Made by a program: the position numbers and the translations under genes. Under the pieces are notes generated by a model that was not told where the DNA came from, searched no databases, and was given only the letters and a program-made list of their open reading frames with translations. A stretch of DNA of 16,051 nt from a virus (lineage: Duplodnaviria > Heunggongvirae > Uroviricota > Caudoviricetes): the IMG/VR virus record IMGVR_UViG_2698536480_000003; one strand, 5' to 3'. Position 1 is the stretch's first letter. The number at the start of each line of letters is the position of its first letter. This document shows, one piece after another, positions 2,027-16,051 of the stretch.

Positions 2027-2231
2027 TCATTTTCACTTTTTTAAATCCAACGACAGACGGCTGGCATTTAAGTATTGTGAAATATTATCAAATGTAATCA
2101 TCATTGATTTACAAAAGATACATTTTGCCCCGAAAGGATTCATGTCAGAAACATCAAAAGATGATGTTCTATACTGGGAACCATGACAACACGGGCATCT
2201 AAAGTGAATATGGTTTGTAATATTGTCTACC

Positions 2232-2444
2232 TCAAAGCGCCACTACATGAACAGCGGCAGGACCTTTAGGTCCGTTCTCAATACCAAATTCAACTTCCTG
2301 ATTCTCAGTTAATGTTTTGAAATCGTTGCTCTGAATTGCTGAGAAATGGACAAACACATCTTTGCTGCCATCTTTCGGCGTGATGAAACCAAAACCTTTT
2401 TCAGGGTTAAACCATTTCACTAAACCAGTCATTTTGTTAGACAT
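2232..2444 (-). CDS. cspI: Cold-shock protein CspI (CspA family), 70 aa
   Basis: [70 protein letters not shown] with RNP1/RNP2 motifs; csp-type leader upstream (AAAGGUAAUAAUUAUG). Confidence 0.95.
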
Positions 2445-2806
2445 AATTATTACCTTTTGAAGAAATTAGCCCTTGGGCAGAATGGTCCGAAAAAAAATAT
2501 CAGAGAGAAAAACCAACAAGGAAATCTCAAGAGGTACAAATAATAAAATTATAACAATGACTGCTTCAGATAAATTTGTAACAAACCAGAACACCATTAA
2601 CGCATGATTAACCACCCATAGCAAGGATTACTTTTGTAAAGAAAAACACAGCAATGAAAGAATAGCTTTATTTATTAATAAAACGTGTCATTCTGATTAA
2701 GACCTTTTATCTTACCCTTAAGATTTCAGGAATTTTGGCTCATGGAAGAGTCCTTTTTATTTAAATTTTACATTCCGCGATGTAAATGTTCCGATTTAAT
2801 ATTACC

Positions 2807-3830
<1,024 letters not shown>

Positions 3831-4146: not shown

Positions 4147-4362
4147 TTACTCTCCTCTCGCAGCCTTACGCCTGTCTTCTTTAATCTTGAAATAAAGATT
4201 TGTCAGATACGTCAGCAGGCCAAAAACCAGGCTACCCAGCACACCGATTGCAGCCCACTGTGACGGAGTTACTTTATCGAGTAACTGCAATGCCCAGAAA
4301 CCAGCATTACCCGCCGATGTGCCATAGGCAACACCTGTTGTTAACTTATCCATTGATTTCAT
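4147..4362 (-). CDS. essQ: Class II holin / pinholin (phage 21 S21-like), 71 aa, with MKSM dual-start motif
   Basis: [71 protein letters not shown]: two transmembrane helices and a charged C-terminus. The track ORF extends upstream to 4437 from a non-ATG start. Confidence 0.9.
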
Positions 4363-4581
4363 ATCCTCACCCCGATGTACACGGATGGTGCAATATGTTT
4401 GAAAAGATCGGAGTCTACGGGGTAGTTTTGACAGCACACGTTGTTCTCAACGGCGCTAAAAAAACATACACATTAAAAATGTGGGTAATTATTTTGAAAG
4501 AAAGTCATATATAAAATAATAATACGAGAAATGTTTTCATATTTAGTGTACTGTATACGGCCATTTATACAGGAAAAGCCT

Positions 4582-4752
4582 ATGTCAGAACGTAAAAACT
4601 CAAAATCACGCCGTAATTATCTCGTTAAATGTTCCTGCCCAAACTGCACCCAAGAGTCAGAACACAGTTTTTCAAGAGTACAAAAAGGTGCCCTTTTGAT
4701 CTGCCCTCATTGCAACAAAGTATTCCAGACAAATCTTAAAGCTGTAGCCTGA
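4582..4752 (+). CDS. ynfU: Small zinc-ribbon protein (CxxC...CxxC), 56 aa
   Basis: MSERKNSKSRRNYLVKCSCPNCTQESEHSFSRVQKGALLICPHCNKVFQTNLKAVA; AGGAAA Shine-Dalgarno 5 nt upstream of the ATG at 4582. Symbol is from memory of Qin small proteins and is not certain. Confidence 0.55.
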   Translation: MSERKNSKSRRNYLVKCSCPNCTQESEHSFSRVQKGALLICPHCNKVFQTNLKAVA

Positions 4753-4811
4753 TTGATTTTATTAGTAACAAGTATTTTTTATATTTTAATAATATATTTA
4801 AAGCAGATAAT

Positions 4812-4836
4812 AAAAAACCCGCCTGAGCGGGTTTGA
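4812..4836. terminator. Bidirectional rho-independent terminator (stem aacccgc/gcgggtt, loop ctga) with A-run on one side and T-run on the other
   Basis: Hairpin 4816-4833 preceded by aaaaa and followed by ttt; it can terminate ynfU (+) and the cspB transcript (-). Confidence 0.7.
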
Positions 4837-5115
4837 GATTGTGGTGCTTTTTGTGGGAGTCATCCACTTACGCACTTTGTTTTGCCATGCCAGCAGTTAG
4901 CTTCTGCTGTAAAACTATTCATGCAGCAAACCTGCACTTCACCACAATGGTTAGCATACTTTTCCTGATTAAGATTTTGCCAAATATGCTAGCCATTGTT
5001 TCATGTATTGGACCTCCTTACTTTTTATTAAAGAGATCCAATATTCACTACTCTGTCCGTATCTCTACTCAGGCATCAGCCTTCTTCGTTATCGTATACA
5101 GACGAGCGATGAATT

Positions 5116-5331
5116 TTAATCAGTAATGATGACATTTGCTGCTGCAGGACCTTTAGCACCACTCTCTATAGAGAAGGTAACCTTTTGACCTTCAAATAAG
5201 GTTCGATAATTATCATTCTGAATCGCAGAAAAATGCACAAACACATCTTTACTACCATCAACAGGAGAAATAAAGCCGAAACCTTTATCAGCGTTAAACC
5301 ATTTTACTAAACCAGTCATTTTATTTGACAT
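5116..5331 (-). CDS. cspB: Cold-shock protein CspB (CspA family), 71 aa
   Basis: [71 protein letters not shown]; long leader upstream with cold-box-like and GCCGAAAGGC elements. Confidence 0.95.
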
Positions 5332-5631
5332 TCTACATTCCTTAACTTGAGCCTTTCGGCATAAATGGTTTGCATAACAGAAACGACTTCGTACTTAATT
5401 GGAGAGACTCAAAGAAGGAATAAGTGAATAACACCTGAAATGAGAACTGCTTTAGTAAACTACTTCGTATATCGTCTGTTCTTCAAACCGACGCAATCAT
5501 TAACGCATAGTTGAACATATGAAGCAATGTTTATTTTAGACATCCAGCCATCTTCAACCCCATCAAAAAACTATAGCTTTCTTCAGGAACGTGTGTATAG
5601 TGCGCCAAGTTATCAGTATTAAGGAATTTTT

Positions 5632-5844
5632 TTGTCCCGTAAAATGACAGGAATTGTCAAAACCTTTGACGGCAAAAGCGGCAAGGGTCTTATCACCCCA
5701 TCCGATGGTCGTATCGATGTCCAGCTTCATGTTTCAGCGCTCAATCTCCGCGATGCAGAAGAAATTACCACCGGATTACGCGTGGAATTTTGCCGGATAA
5801 ATGGTCTGCGTGGCCCTTCAGCTGCCAATGTTTACCTTTCATGA
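5632..5844 (+). CDS. cspF: Cold-shock-like protein CspF (CspA family, divergent paralog), 70 aa
   Basis: [70 protein letters not shown]; the first codon is TTG with AAGGAA Shine-Dalgarno 5 nt upstream; divergent from cspB. Confidence 0.9.
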
Positions 5845-5898
5845 GCTATATTAAAGCTTTAATTTCAGGCCCCATCGGATCACACATGGAGAGTTTTT

Positions 5899-5988
5899 AT
5901 GAATAACCCCGTCTGTCTTGATGACTGGTTGATTGGCTTTAAAAGCTTATGCTGTACTTTGGCCGTAATAGCTCTGCTAATAATATAA
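5899..5988 (+). CDS. Candidate 29-aa hydrophobic peptide ([29 protein letters not shown])
   Basis: GGAGAG Shine-Dalgarno at 5888-5893, 5 nt before the ATG; C-terminal transmembrane-like stretch. Not in the ORF track because it is short. Confidence 0.3.
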
Positions 5989-6135
5989 TAAGCAGACTCA
6001 TTGTGTTTAGGGACATTGTACTGGAAGAAAACATTTTAAACATCAGGCAAATAACCAAGTCACCAGCTAAATAATAAGTTAACAGACATGAGTCCCGGGA
6101 TGAGATTCAACATTACCATTGCCCCATTTAAAGCA

Positions 6136-6162
6136 CAAAACCCGCTCATCAGCGGGTTTTCT
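6136..6162. terminator. Bidirectional intrinsic terminator; on the minus strand it is in the position of the lambdoid late terminator tR'
   Basis: Stem aaacccgct/agcgggttt with loop catc at 6138-6159; U-rich tracts follow on both strands. Confidence 0.7.
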
Positions 6163-6205
6163 ACTTTTTCTTAACGTCGGGTATACAAAGCCCATCGTTG
6201 AAAAA

Positions 6206-6234
6206 ATTTTATCCATATTTTTTGAAAAATGCAA
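6206..6234 (-). promoter_or_regulatory. Sigma-70 promoter (TTGCAT-17nt-TAAAAT) immediately downstream of the Q gene: candidate PR'-like late promoter
   Basis: Minus-strand -35 at 6234..6229 and -10 at 6211..6206 with a 17-nt spacer; about 30 nt after the quuQ stop and about 40-60 nt upstream of the terminator hairpin. Confidence 0.55.
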
Positions 6235-6265
6235 ACATCATGTCGCCATCTTCAGCAAAAATCAT

Positions 6266-7018
6266 TTATCTCGTCACCTTCCTCAATTGCGCTTCCGCGT
6301 ATGCTTCTTCCTGCCAGCACTTTGTTACCAGTTTACCAATGACGTCCGCATACCCCTTATACCACTGATAATCGGTCAGGTCTGGTACCAGCTTCTGGAC
6401 ATGACGTCGTGCCAGCGTGGTCGGTAAACGACTAAACCGGTTTCCATTACAACGCCCACAAATCTTATATACCGGTACGCCATGAAACCGGGTTCTTTTT
6501 TCATCCAGAACAATCCCTTTACCCTTACACCCTCTGCACGCTGTGCTGGCTTCGCCCTTACCATGGCAATGCTGACATAGTTCCTTCACCCATTCTTCCT
6601 TGATTACAGATTCCCCGCGTCTGTAGTGTTTCACCACTTCGCGCAATACATTATAAAATCCCGTACCTGAACAATGCTCACAGCGAGCCTTACTTGCCGC
6701 AGACCTGGAGTAATCAGCAAAGGCAAAACTCACGAGGTAAGGAATAATCTGTAACCGGATTTCTTCACTCAATTTGTTCAATGTCGGGTTATCCAGTGCC
6801 ATCGCGTAATTTAGCAGGCCTTCAATCGCAAACTGAGGGTCCTGAACACCAACTTTTGCCAGAAATAAGGCCAACCCAAGTGGTGCTTTCGACTGCACCA
6901 TCCCCTGCGCTGCCATTACATCCGTAATTGTTAAACAACCGGTGCCTGTCGCTGGAGCGTCATCGCTCAATTTTGGAGATTTTGGGGAGTAATATTTTGG
7001 TAAGGCTTCAAGGTTCAT
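6266..7018 (-). CDS. quuQ: Late-gene antiterminator Q (zinc-binding, multiple CxxC motifs), 250 aa
   Basis: MNLEALPKYYSPKSPKL... with CEHCSGTG, CQHCHGKG, CRGCKGKG and CGRCNG motifs. ATG at 7018 is preceded by GGAG; the longer track ORF (7048) starts at TTG and overlaps ydfU. Confidence 0.85.
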   Translation of the reverse strand: MNLEALPKYYSPKSPKLSDDAPATGTGCLTITDVMAAQGMVQSKAPLGLALFLAKVGVQDPQFAIEGLLNYAMALDNPTLNKLSEEIRLQIIPYLVSFAFADYSRSAASKARCEHCSGTGFYNVLREVVKHYRRGESVIKEEWVKELCQHCHGKGEASTACRGCKGKGIVLDEKRTRFHGVPVYKICGRCNGNRFSRLPTTLARRHVQKLVPDLTDYQWYKGYADVIGKLVTKCWQEEAYAEAQLRKVTR

Positions 7019-10801: not shown

Positions 10802-12444
10802 CATTACGCGCACCGCCCAGACTGACTCAGCGCGTTTCTGGCATATCCCCGGTAAAACAAGTAACAAACCACCCGAAAATGAACACCAGAAACGCGACTT
10901 AAGAATCTACCCTATGAATGGATATGCACTCAACCGAATCGATCTTGGTTTCAATCTTTTTTATCGGGATCAGGCTTCTTTTTAGGTAACTTCGGGGGCT
11001 TAACTTGCTGATGACTTTGCGTTCGGCGCGTAAGCCAGGGATGGTCAGCTTTAGGTTTAACATAGTATTTTGAGCGTAAATCAATACGGGCATTATCCAC
11101 TCGTTCATGGACACTCTTTTCATCATCCAGTGGTATAGGCTCCGGGCCATCAACATACTTTTCCCAGCCCAGCGCTTTCCCGTCATACAGAACGTTAATT
11201 TCACCGTCAAAGTTCTCGCATACAGTAACAACCGAATGCCTAAGTCGATATCCCCGGCCCTCACTGCGTACCTGAAACGCACTGCTTTTGTACTGGAAAG
11301 TGAGATTTTTAGACAGAACGCGCTTCGCCTGTAGGCTGAAGATATAACCCAGTTCCTCTTCAGAATGGTGCACATCAAGATGAGCATTATCAGTAGTACG
11401 AGGCGACGTAGCGAACCGGTTGTTATAGGCTTCAATAAAGGTCGGCAACCATGCATTTGCTGTTTCAATATCACTGATATTCTGAAGCCGCATTTCTTTG
11501 ACCAGCCTGTCCTGTAGTGTCTGATTGGCGCGCTCTACCCGCCCTTTTGCCTGCGGGCTGTTGGCATGGATTGGCTCGATGCCCAGTGTCTTTATCGCAC
11601 GAGTGAACTGGGTCAGCTCACCTTCCCGCTCTGGGTTATTTACCCTGAATATACTGTGTCTATCAGAGTAGAGAGCGAGCGGTACGCCATGATCATTAAG
11701 GTAACCCCGGAGGGTTTCCATGTAAGCCCGGGTTGTTTCAGCAGGCACAAAACGCAACGCCATCAACGCACTGGTGGCATCATCAATGAAAACGATCAGT
11801 GTACATCTGGGGCCTCGATTTTCAAACCAGTCATGAGGTGAGCCATCAATCTGGATCAGTTCACCGTAAGATGGTCGTCGCATGCGGCGTTGATATATAC
11901 GGGCAATTTTACGACGGCGTTCACGCCATAACCCCTCTTCTATCATCCACTTTCTGAGAGTTTCAACGGATAAAGATAAACCGTGTATCTCGCGCAATTT
12001 TTCGCACGCAAACGTAGGTCCAAAATCAGCGTAACGGCCTTTGAGGAGTGAAATTACTGTTGCTCTGAATTCAGTAGAAAAGGAATTATTAGGACGCTTT
12101 CCACGTCGGTGGGAAACCAGACCAGAAGGCCCTTCATTTCTATACCGTTGCACCAGACGTTTAACCTGCCGAATAGAAATGCCAATGCGTGCCGCAGCTT
12201 GTTCCTGAATAATCTGAAGTCGGTGGAGTTCCTTATGACTCATCGTAACAGTCTCTTTGATCATGAAAAATCCCCCAGAGAATTGTCTGGGGACATTTTA
12301 GAATGGTTCAAAGGGGACATTACAGCTTGGTGTTAACAATAGCCTGCTTCTCCGTGCCTTTCGGCACGTAAGAGGCTAACCTACATGTGTCTAGCATGAA
12401 ATTGGCCTCAGATTAATGTTAAGCGTCTTGCAGGACGCGTAATG
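10802..12444 (-). mobile_element. Insertion sequence, about 1.64 kb, carrying a single DDE transposase; ends proposed from imperfect terminal inverted repeats (cattacgcg...)
   Basis: 10802-10826 (cattacgcgcaccgcccagac) versus the reverse complement of 12420-12444 (cattacgcgtcctgcaagac): 9 of 9 at the tip, then partial. No clean target-site duplication found, so the exact boundaries are uncertain. Confidence 0.4.
10951..12264 (-). CDS. DDE transposase with N-terminal helix-turn-helix and rve (integrase-core) domain, 437 aa; IS481/ISNCY(IS1202-group)-like
   Basis: N-terminus ELHRLQIIQEQAAARIGISIRQVKRLVQRYRNEGPSGLVSHRRGKRP; catalytic-core-like IQIDGSPHDW ... FIDDATSA ... ANSPQAKGRVER (D, D, E). 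Exact IS family not determined. Confidence 0.8.
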   Translation of the reverse strand: MIKETVTMSHKELHRLQIIQEQAAARIGISIRQVKRLVQRYRNEGPSGLVSHRRGKRPNNSFSTEFRATVISLLKGRYADFGPTFACEKLREIHGLSLSVETLRKWMIEEGLWRERRRKIARIYQRRMRRPSYGELIQIDGSPHDWFENRGPRCTLIVFIDDATSALMALRFVPAETTRAYMETLRGYLNDHGVPLALYSDRHSIFRVNNPEREGELTQFTRAIKTLGIEPIHANSPQAKGRVERANQTLQDRLVKEMRLQNISDIETANAWLPTFIEAYNNRFATSPRTTDNAHLDVHHSEEELGYIFSLQAKRVLSKNLTFQYKSSAFQVRSEGRGYRLRHSVVTVCENFDGEINVLYDGKALGWEKYVDGPEPIPLDDEKSVHERVDNARIDLRSKYYVKPKADHPWLTRRTQSHQQVKPPKLPKKKPDPDKKD

Positions 12445-12598
12445 TTAACTGGGGCTTTTCTCTATCTGCCGTTGGTGTCCATGCCCGAGGCAGATAGCCT
12501 CAAGCGCCCGCAGTCATTCTACTTAACTAAGATTTCCCCGCAAACCGTTTTTGTCCAGCACAGTAAATATCCAACTAAACCAATGGAGTTCGCTGTAT

Positions 12599-14736: not shown

Positions 14737-14770
14737 CTAAAAGCCACACTAACTAATGAGAGAAGTTGAA

Positions 14771-16051
14771 ATGAAATATCCGACAGGCGTGGAAAACCAT
14801 GGAGGGAAATTACGTATCTGGTTTGTTTATAAAGACGTAAGAGTCAGGGAAAATCTGGGGGTTCCTGACACAGCAAAAAACAGGCGCGTTGCAGGTGAAC
14901 TACGCTCCTCTGTTTGTTACGCAATAAAAACTGGTGTTTTCGACTATGCAAAACAGTTTCCCTCCTCACGCAATCTGGAAAAATTTGGTGAGGCCCGACA
15001 AGATTTAACCATAAAAGAACTGGCTGAAAAATTTCTGGCACTGAAAGAAACTGAAGTCGCCAAAACATCACTCAACACATACCGTGCCGTCATCAAAAAT
15101 ATCCTGAGCATAATCGGTGAAAAAAATCTTGCCTCATCGATTAATAAAGAAAAATTACTGGAGGTTCGTAAAGAGTTACTGACTGGATACCAGATCCCCA
15201 AAAGTAACTATATTGTTACACAACCAGGGAGATCGGCTGTAACTGTAAATAATTACATGACAAATCTTAACGCCGTGTTCCAGTTTGGTGTTGATAACGG
15301 TTACCTGGCAGATAATCCGTTTAAGGGGATCTCGCCATTAAAGGAATCAAGAACCATTCCGGATCCTCTTTCGCGGGAAGAATTTATCCGTCTTATCGAT
15401 GCGTGCAGAAATCAGCAAGCAAAAAATTTATGGTGTGTTTCTGTTTATACTGGAGTTCGCCCTGGTGAGCTGTGTGCACTTGGATGGGAGGACATAGATC
15501 TGAAAAATGGAACAATGATGATCAGGAGAAATTTAGCAAAAAACCGTTTCACGGTACCAAAAACACAGGCGGGAACCAATCGGGTCATTCATCTTATTAA
15601 GCCAGCAATCGACGCTCTCCGGAGTCAGATGACATTAACGAGACTGAGCAAAGAGCATATCATTGATGTTCACCTCAGAGAGTATGGCAGAACAGAAAAA
15701 CAAAAATGCACCTTTGTTTTTCAACCTGAAGTGTCAGCGAGAGTAAAAAATTATGGTGACCATTTTACCGTTGACTCAATAAGGCAGATGTGGGACGCAG
15801 CGATAAAACGTGCCGGACTCCGCCATCGAAAATCATATCAGTCGAGACATACTTATGCCTGCTGGTCGCTGACAGCTGGTGCTAACCCGGCATTTATAGC
15901 AAACCAGATGGGCCATGCAGATGCGCAAATGGTATTTCAGGTATACGGAAAATGGATGTCTGAAAACAATAATGCACAGGTAGCTTTGTTAAATACACAG
16001 TTAAGCGAGTTTGCCCCAACCATGCCCCATAACGAAGCAATGAAAAATTAA
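14771..16051 (+). CDS. int: Tyrosine recombinase / phage integrase with N-terminal arm-binding domain, 426 aa (431 aa if started at ATG 14756)
   Basis: MKYPTGVENHGGKLRIWFVYKDVRVRENLG (arm-type N-terminus like Rac-type integrases), and a C-terminal catalytic region ...HRKSYQSRHTYACWSLTAGANPAFIANQMGHADAQMVFQVYGKW. The stop codon is the last three bases of the window. Confidence 0.85.
   Translation: MKYPTGVENHGGKLRIWFVYKDVRVRENLGVPDTAKNRRVAGELRSSVCYAIKTGVFDYAKQFPSSRNLEKFGEARQDLTIKELAEKFLALKETEVAKTSLNTYRAVIKNILSIIGEKNLASSINKEKLLEVRKELLTGYQIPKSNYIVTQPGRSAVTVNNYMTNLNAVFQFGVDNGYLADNPFKGISPLKESRTIPDPLSREEFIRLIDACRNQQAKNLWCVSVYTGVRPGELCALGWEDIDLKNGTMMIRRNLAKNRFTVPKTQAGTNRVIHLIKPAIDALRSQMTLTRLSKEHIIDVHLREYGRTEKQKCTFVFQPEVSARVKNYGDHFTVDSIRQMWDAAIKRAGLRHRKSYQSRHTYACWSLTAGANPAFIANQMGHADAQMVFQVYGKWMSENNNAQVALLNTQLSEFAPTMPHNEAMKN

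Follow-up and report, generated by a model that had tools for sequence, protein, structure and literature searches.

Introduction

Cargo between the late promoter PR' with its terminator tR' and the lysis genes is textbook for lambdoid phages. Shiga toxin (Stx) genes sit there, this being the invariant stx location in the literature, and the interval has been described as the place, downstream of the Q-antiterminated PR', where morons insert (Tree et al, 2014). Here we analyse this slot in the IMG/VR record IMGVR_UViG_2698536480_000003, a virus of the Caudoviricetes whose whole stretch of 16,051 nucleotides (nt) is called the window throughout, together with a structured RNA element in the 3' untranslated region (3'UTR) of the cold-shock gene cspB, which is part of the cargo. 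The 2.2 kilobases (kb) around ynfU, cspB and cspF match the Qin cryptic prophage of Escherichia coli K-12 MG1655 at 100% identity.

Several described systems resemble the locus in part. With the moron/stx slot of lambdoid and Stx phages it shares the position, cargo with its own signals and the lower guanine-plus-cytosine (GC) content of that cargo, but the Qin slot holds a cassette of cold-shock genes, not a toxin, and cspF, ynfU and ynfS are antisense to the late transcript. The lambda 6S RNA and the StxS small RNA (sRNA) likewise combine a constitutive promoter, the identical AACGATGGG motif and an early intrinsic terminator with a 3' end there in vivo, although the Qin PR'–tR' leader is ~67 nt long compared with 194 nt for lambda 6S RNA. 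The anti-sRNAs AsxR and AgvB of enterohaemorrhagic E. coli prophages also lie between a moron coding sequence and the next phage gene, among convergent transcription units; they are, however, 51–60 nt long and bind Hfq, whereas the cspB element is ~160 nt long and multi-helical, has no Rfam match and was not seen in Hfq tables. In DLP12, another cryptic lambdoid prophage of K-12, nmpC is a moron gene between Q and holin, and its 3' region encodes a regulatory RNA, IpeX, which reportedly acts in trans; it has no sequence relationship to the cspB 3'UTR, and the trans action belongs to IpeX. Finally, the cspA thermoregulator (RF01766) is matched above its gathering score by the leaders of cspB and cspI. 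It covers the 5'UTR and the coding region only, its terminator part is unaligned, and the cspB 3'UTR element is unrelated to it.

Our analysis makes it highly probable that the region holds the late control functions of a lambdoid prophage of the Qin type, and that a single AT-rich mobile cassette fills the slot between tR' and the holin gene essQ. The cassette comprises ynfS, cspF, cspB, whose 3'UTR is long and structured, and ynfU; it has its own signals and would be read through when Q is made. The distal cspB 3'UTR is a conserved multi-helix RNA structure that is apparently undescribed.

Results

The late module and its cargo slot

Window coordinates equal NC_000913.3 coordinates minus 1,636,223. 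RefSeq already annotates all genes of the region (essQ, ynfU, cspB, cspF, ynfS and ydfT/quuQ), Pfam confirms each identity, and at least 80% of the 2.2 kb is present in 1,615 of 5,426 complete E. coli genomes. The first-pass annotation of this DNA had put ynfU, cspB and cspF between a lambda-type Q-dependent promoter and the holin gene. Coordinates, strands and distances of all three genes proved correct, as did the placement itself, on the coordinates and on the homology of Q, PR' and tR'; the list of cargo genes was right in what it named but overlooked a fourth gene, ynfS.

By its sequence, QuuQ is a lambda-family Q protein. It matches the lambda Q structure (PDB 7ubm) with an expectation value (E) of 4.6e-36 and the Pfam family PF03589 (Antiterm) with E 3.6e-54 and 181 bits; PF00684 and PHROG 127 are also matched. 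Relative to lambda Q, an insertion of ~40 amino acids (aa) gives QuuQ four CxxCxGxG motifs, and Pfam scores a DnaJ-type zinc-finger domain.

On the minus strand 3' of the quuQ stop codon, a consensus scan found TTTGCA-18-TAAAAT-tttttc-AACGATGGG, for comparison with TTGACT-17-TAAATT-tgactc-AACGATGGG at lambda PR'. Because the pause 9-mer is identical to that of lambda and has the same 6-nt spacing from the –10 box, and because lambda Q loads at the sigma-dependent pause, we placed the transcription start near 6199. The 9-mer is kept in the phages 2H10, SfV, Ayreon and Tritos and in one Stx2c phage. The spacer between the –35 and –10 boxes differs from that of lambda, as expected for a Q of other specificity.

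Published Term-seq data for K-12 contain a 3' end at 1642356(–), window position 6133, in three growth conditions with 55,000–123,000 reads (Adams et al, 2021, PMC7815308, supplementary file 1). Since this end at tR' occurs in all three conditions, PR' appears to be constitutively active and to yield a leader of ~67 nt ending at tR', which corresponds to lambda 6S RNA and to the leader RNA of Stx phages. On the plus strand, tR' would end transcripts of cspF and ynfS. A further minus-strand 3' end, at 1642188 (window 5965), was seen in stationary phase only (Adams et al, 2021, PMC7815308). As it lies past tR', in antisense orientation to ynfS, either tR' is read through to some extent or there is a promoter between 6130 and 5965.

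The distance to the essQ start codon is 1.84 kb from the inferred +1 and 1.77 kb from tR'. This spacing of about 1.8 kb had been taken as a departure from the canonical lambdoid arrangement, to be checked in related prophages, and the comparison did not support that view. Among the phages compared, the short gap is the exception, found only in lambda (406 base pairs (bp) from tR' to S), whereas the gap measures 1.6–2.3 kb in SfV and Ayreon and ~4 kb in a Stx2c phage. SfV, Ayreon, mEp460 and many Stx2c-converting phages carry a quuQ/PR'/tR' segment ~90% identical to the window; the match stops at window position 6137, at the tR' hairpin, and other cargo of 1.6 to more than 4 kb follows. In SfV this is 1.6 kb including a DNA methylase, in Ayreon 2.3 kb, and in one Stx2c phage ~4 kb with a lipoprotein-like open reading frame (ORF), a DNA methylase, tRNA-Met, tRNA-Arg and stx2A/stx2B. 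The arrangement is already known as a classical moron slot, and every annotation of K-12 shows this gene order.

The cargo has the properties by which morons were defined (Juhala/Hendrix). It lies between two conserved phage functions, tR' and the holin, and is replaced in relatives (SfV, Ayreon, mEp460 and the Stx2c phages). It has its own promoter and terminator signals (the cspA-type leader, Term-seq ends in uninduced K-12, the hairpin at 4834–4815, and detected YnfU and YnfS). Its base composition deviates, with 35–41% GC across 4400–6200 compared with 45–55% in the lysis genes and in quuQ/ydfU. The same block occurs in GenBank phages, at 100% identity in PhiR42_1 and at 95–97% in HannyBb, PhiR63_1, 2H10 and Tritos.

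HannyBb has two tandem late-promoter/terminator modules (~3520–3640 and 5230–5360 of HannyBb). A divergent one stands beside its Q gene and a Qin-type PR'/tR' remnant follows 1.7 kb further on; the cargo between them includes a 94-aa ORF without Pfam match.

A co-inherited cassette

The first-pass annotation treated ynfU, cspB and cspF as separate genes wedged into the slot. This is not what the comparison of other contexts shows: cspF, cspB and ynfU are inherited together as one mobile unit, which also occurs on plasmids, phage-plasmids and chromosomes without Q and holin. We oriented 25 loci from other contexts (contigs of Enterobacter, Kluyvera, Kosakonia and Superficieibacter, phage PHB10 and IMG/VR contigs) on the 3'UTR element. 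The CspB-like gene then lies ~390 nt upstream, a divergent cspF lies ~880 nt upstream, and many of the loci have a convergent ynfU homologue 95–190 nt downstream. The cassette proteins of these loci are only 59–82% identical to those of the window, and no Q or holin gene is nearby. Composition varies: in F-type plasmids a distant YnfU paralogue stands upstream of cspF in place of the convergent ynfU, and SSU5-like phage-plasmids have the csp gene and its 3'UTR only, without ynfU and cspF. Natural deletion variants of the cassette are found in Tritos, where a deletion of 259 bp removes ynfS and the 3' end of cspF, and in an IMG/VR contig (L183) that has retained cspB, ynfU and the three-way junction but lacks cspF, ynfS and the part of the 3'UTR from SL2 to H3.

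The genes have their own expression signals, which would make the cassette expressible from a silent prophage. The cspB leader scores 158.8 bits against RF01766 and the cspI leader 112.8 bits (gathering score 78), while cspF failed membership of this family with a partial match of only 14 bits. A Rho-dependent 3' end lies in the cspB leader at 1641634(–), window 5411, and a reporter fusion of the cspB 5'UTR and ORF was Rho-dependent (Adams et al, 2021, PMC7815308). For ynfU, the best match of the promoter scan in the region is a promoter-like site at 4494–4523 (10 of 12 consensus positions), and plus-strand transcripts end at 1641060, window 4837, at the hairpin shared with cspB (Term-seq; Adams et al, 2021, PMC7815308). 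In K-12, tagged YnfU was more abundant than any other small protein newly found in its discovery preprint, and YnfS was detectable.

These signals suggest the following scheme. In the silent prophage, PR' would fire constitutively and stop at tR', giving the ~67-nt leader, while cspB, ynfU and probably cspF–ynfS would be transcribed on their own signals, cspB from a cold-shock promoter through a thermoregulatory leader attenuated by Rho. In lambda, Q-modified RNA polymerase resists both intrinsic and Rho-dependent terminators. If Q were made, the modified polymerase would pass tR', the attenuator in the cspB leader, the structures of the cspB 3'UTR and the 4834–4809 terminator in turn, and the late transcript would cover ynfS, cspF and ynfU in antisense and cspB in sense before running on into essQ–ydfR–rrrQ–rzpQ. 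The first-pass annotation had drawn the same geometry for cspF, ynfU and cspB, and it is right on the strand map. Such Q-dependent read-through is expected by homology with lambda and the Stx phages, and in intact phages with the identical block, where Q would be made, it would take place.

Several points weigh against this scheme. The PR' start site was placed by analogy with lambda, not mapped, and the RNA ending at tR' could partly derive from transcription through quuQ instead of from PR'. Apart from that of cspB, the promoters of the cassette are consensus matches only, no commoner than chance in the region. The prophage is defective in K-12 and in the window, so that Q may never be expressed.

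Table 1. Features of the late-regulatory region, in window coordinates (minus-strand features given from high to low position where the direction is drawn)
Feature	Position	Strand	Basis or remark
essQ, phage-21-type holin, first gene of the lysis cassette	4147–4362	–	Pfam PF04971, E 4.4e-34; RefSeq
ynfU, 56-aa zinc-ribbon protein, convergent with cspB	4582–4752	+	Pfam PF23499, E 3.5e-31
Bidirectional intrinsic terminator of cspB 3'UTR and ynfU	4809–4834 (hairpin 4834–4815)	strong U-tract on –, weak on +	Scan
Conserved structured RNA element, ~160 nt	4838–4999	–	Conservation and covariation
Closing helix P1, 9 bp	4948–4940 with 4846–4838	–	Encloses H4, H5 and H6
Hairpins H4 / H5 / H6	4937–4921 / 4909–4891 / 4867–4853	–	Within P1
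Near-invariant single-stranded stretch AAAGUGCGUAAG	4878–4867	–	Part of element 4838–4999
Hairpin H3	~4994–4950	–	Part of element 4838–4999
Stem-loop SL2, 14-bp stem, 3' arm with UAAGGAGGU	5007–5042	–	Fold; Qin lineage only
Stem-loop SL1, conserved internal region GAUAACGAAGA...CCUGAGUAGA	5043–5114	–	Fold; covariation of outer stem
cspB coding sequence	5116–5331	–	Pfam CSD, E 9.8e-32; RefSeq b1557
cspB 5'UTR, cspA-type thermoregulator leader	5332–5492	–	Rfam RF01766, 158.8 bits
cspF, CspA-family paralogue, TTG start, divergent from cspB	5632–5844	+	Pfam CSD, E 5.6e-22; RefSeq
ynfS, 29-aa small protein, part of the cargo	5899–5988	+	Pfam PF23697, E 4.7e-23; RefSeq b4750
tR', bidirectional intrinsic terminator	6130–6160 (hairpin 6160–6137)	–	Hairpin and T-tract; Term-seq
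Sigma-dependent pause element AACGATGGG	6199–6191	–	9-mer common to lambda PR'
Late promoter PR'	6191–6235	–	–35 TTTGCA 6235–6230; –10 TAAAAT 6211–6206; inferred +1 6199
quuQ/ydfT, lambda-family late antiterminator Q	6266–7018	–	PDB 7ubm, Pfam, PHROG 127, RefSeq

A second cold-shock moron, cspI (2205–2590, minus strand), follows the lysis cassette after rzpQ and has its own cspA-type leader (Rfam, 112.8 bits). With cspB before essQ, csp cargo therefore stands on both sides of the lysis genes. Immediately 3' of cspI, at 2033–2221 on the minus strand, ynfQ encodes a small CxxC...CxxC zinc-ribbon protein; it has an ATT start and was absent from the ORF list. Pairs of a csp gene with a small zinc-ribbon gene recur in these modules (cspB/ynfU, cspI/ynfQ and cspG/ymcF, the last at the K-12 cspG locus, L010).

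Elsewhere the window departs from K-12 Qin. An ISNCY-family transposase gene at 10951–12264 (minus strand) adjoins the sok antitoxin RNA of a hok/sok locus at 12338–12509 (minus strand; Rfam, 102 bits), where K-12 Qin has the dicA/dicC immunity region, and an integrase gene at 14756–16051 closes this non-Qin part.

The cspB 3' untranslated region

The first-pass annotation had put the cspB stop codon about 280 nt from the nearest minus-strand terminator and had seen room there for a 3'UTR-derived RNA. The distance is exact, as the hairpin and T-tract at 4834–4809 begin 280 nt past the stop codon. An RNA feature in this region is upheld by conservation and covariation; a 280-nt 3'UTR reaching to the hairpin is not, the Term-seq end being at 5001–5003. 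This dominant cspB 3' end, at 1641226/1641224(–) (window 5003/5001), has 0.6–2.5 million reads, compared with 0.30 million for the rpsT terminator and 0.98 million for sroA, both minus-strand ends from the same sheet (Adams et al, 2021, PMC7815308). It lies 113–115 nt past the stop codon and 4–6 nt past the 14-bp stem-loop SL2. In the published Term-seq data from three growth conditions, no curated minus-strand 3' end was found at the 4834–4809 terminator.

SL1 and SL2 make up the fold of the proximal 3'UTR, which has a z-score of –7.0. In the outer stem of SL1, compensatory changes were found in seven of nine pairs (RNAalifold, 14 sequences), while SL2 was not conserved in the other lineages compared. 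The UAAGGAGGU motif in the 3' arm of SL2 is a perfect Shine–Dalgarno sequence, and an AUG 7 nt later opens an ORF of 11 codons (MKQWLAYLAKS; 4969–5004, minus strand), onto whose AUG the dominant cspB 3' end maps; the ORF, like SL2, is specific to the Qin lineage.

The conserved element occupies the distal part, beyond that 3' end. Its homologues were found first on an E. coli phage-plasmid, then on Klebsiella and Enterobacter plasmids and phage PHB10, and then in pattern scans of genomes and viral contigs. The resulting 125 loci form 17 clusters below 96% identity from at least nine genera, and in all of them the core motif lies 133–215 nt past the stop codon of a CspB-like gene on the same strand. 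Most homologues were fetched with the pattern CTAACYRC...AAGTGCGTAA, so that the invariance of both motifs is partly by construction; in sets derived by BLAST and by protein similarity the two motifs were confirmed in 28 of 30 cases, as well as in plasmid and phage matches. Protein-based retrieval at first gave only identical Qin-type copies, and an LCDK-type cold-shock protein (Csp) served as the second query. By protein similarity alone, 31 loci with an LCDK-type Csp of 75% identity or more were retrieved, and 30 of them have the element.

On the proposed structure, 91.5% of cells pair, compared with 24–57% when the partners are slid. Twelve pairs are changed on both sides, against two to five in the slid controls, and none of 500 shuffles reached this number; these controls are slid partners and shuffles and are not phylogeny-aware. 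RNAalifold independently predicts the same helices, with 15 of its 35 pairs compensatory.

The element is single-copy in the window (nhmmer), and a search downstream of cspI and cspG with nhmmer found it only after cspB. Positions 4838–4999 gave no match in Rfam 15, either at the gathering threshold or with E values up to 5; the sub-threshold matches to isrK (18 bits), Trp leader (22 bits) and rsmX (16 bits) are terminator-driven. A genomic repeat of the repetitive extragenic palindromic or enterobacterial repetitive intergenic consensus (REP/ERIC) type is ruled out, as the cspB 3'UTR is single-copy and always beside cspB. An ORF of 97 codons on the plus strand (4833–5126) was rejected because of frame-shifting indels in the homologues. 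Pairing of AAAGUGCGUAAG with the csp leader was no better than that of shuffled sequences in 11 lineages. Literature searches on quuQ, and on essQ together with cspB and sRNAs, yielded nothing relevant.

Because the major cspB 3' end abuts the element, a role in cis is favoured, and our best guess is that the element controls 3'-end processing or stability of the cspB mRNA. The strongest competitor, which we nevertheless consider unlikely, is that the distal 3'UTR (~5000–4809) is cleaved off between SL2 and H3 and released as a stable trans-acting sRNA of ~190 nt with AAAGUGCGUAAG as its seed. The abundant 3' end at 5001–5003 falls exactly on the 5' border of the element, the covarying element contains a near-invariant single-stranded stretch, a strong terminator with a U-tract ends it in the Qin lineage, and small RNAs are known at moron sites. 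Against this reading, Term-seq has no curated minus-strand end at 4834–4809 in the three growth conditions, and the terminator after P1 is missing in most lineages. The cspB 3' region also has no entry in the Hfq crosslinking, ligation and sequencing of hybrids (Hfq-CLASH) table and none among sRNA predictions based on RNA interaction by ligation and sequencing (RIL-seq), all of them 37°C data only; the RIL-seq-based tables list only the cspF.cspB intergenic region and the cspB coding sequence, both with low scores. Moreover, a multi-helix junction resembles a ligand of a protein or ribosome more than a seed-type sRNA.

A role on the plus strand, as the 3' tail of the ynfU mRNA or in an antisense interplay of ynfU and cspB, is quite improbable. 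In many lineages the convergent ynfU does end within ~15–100 nt of the element, and the strand preference of the structure is modest, with 87.6% of the cells still pairing on the antisense strand compared with 91.5% on the sense strand. A csp gene, however, stands beside the element in 125 of 125 loci, the element is intact on phage-plasmids without ynfU and cspF, G.U cells favour the csp-sense strand (38 compared with ~17 on the other), and in K-12 the ynfU transcripts end at 4837, short of the element. Equally doubtful is a recent, neutral hitch-hiking insertion whose 3'UTR is conserved by shared ancestry and not by selection: most E. coli copies are at least 95% identical, and degenerate copies (L338, L341 and L124) are a caveat on conservation, but the helices keep pairing while the Csp proteins diverge to 65–75% identity, two-sided changes lie far above both sets of controls, the SL1 outer stem covaries as well, and retrieval by protein similarity alone recovers the element almost without loss.

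Discussion

A bolder reading of the 3'UTR, which we judge slightly less likely than not, is that mobile CspB-like genes carry an undescribed conserved RNA, composed of SL1 with a loop-E-like internal loop, H3, and a three-way junction that a 9-bp helix closes, with near-invariant loops and the junction sequence AAAGUGCGUAAG. Together with cspF and ynfU it would move as one cassette among prophages, phage-plasmids, F plasmids and the chromosomes of Enterobacteriaceae, and it may bind a protein of the cassette (CspB, CspF or YnfU) or a ribonuclease that sets 3'-end processing or stability of the cspB mRNA.

The gene order between tR' and essQ adds little; the cassette and the covarying cspB 3'UTR matter more, and both are directly testable in K-12. 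Stx2c phages use the Q/PR'/tR' module of Qin to drive stx2c. That a cold-shock protein is inherited together with an atypical Csp paralogue and a small zinc-ribbon protein of high abundance suggests that the three share a function. If the proposed role of the 3'UTR element is true, a textbook cold-shock gene would gain a new level of regulation.

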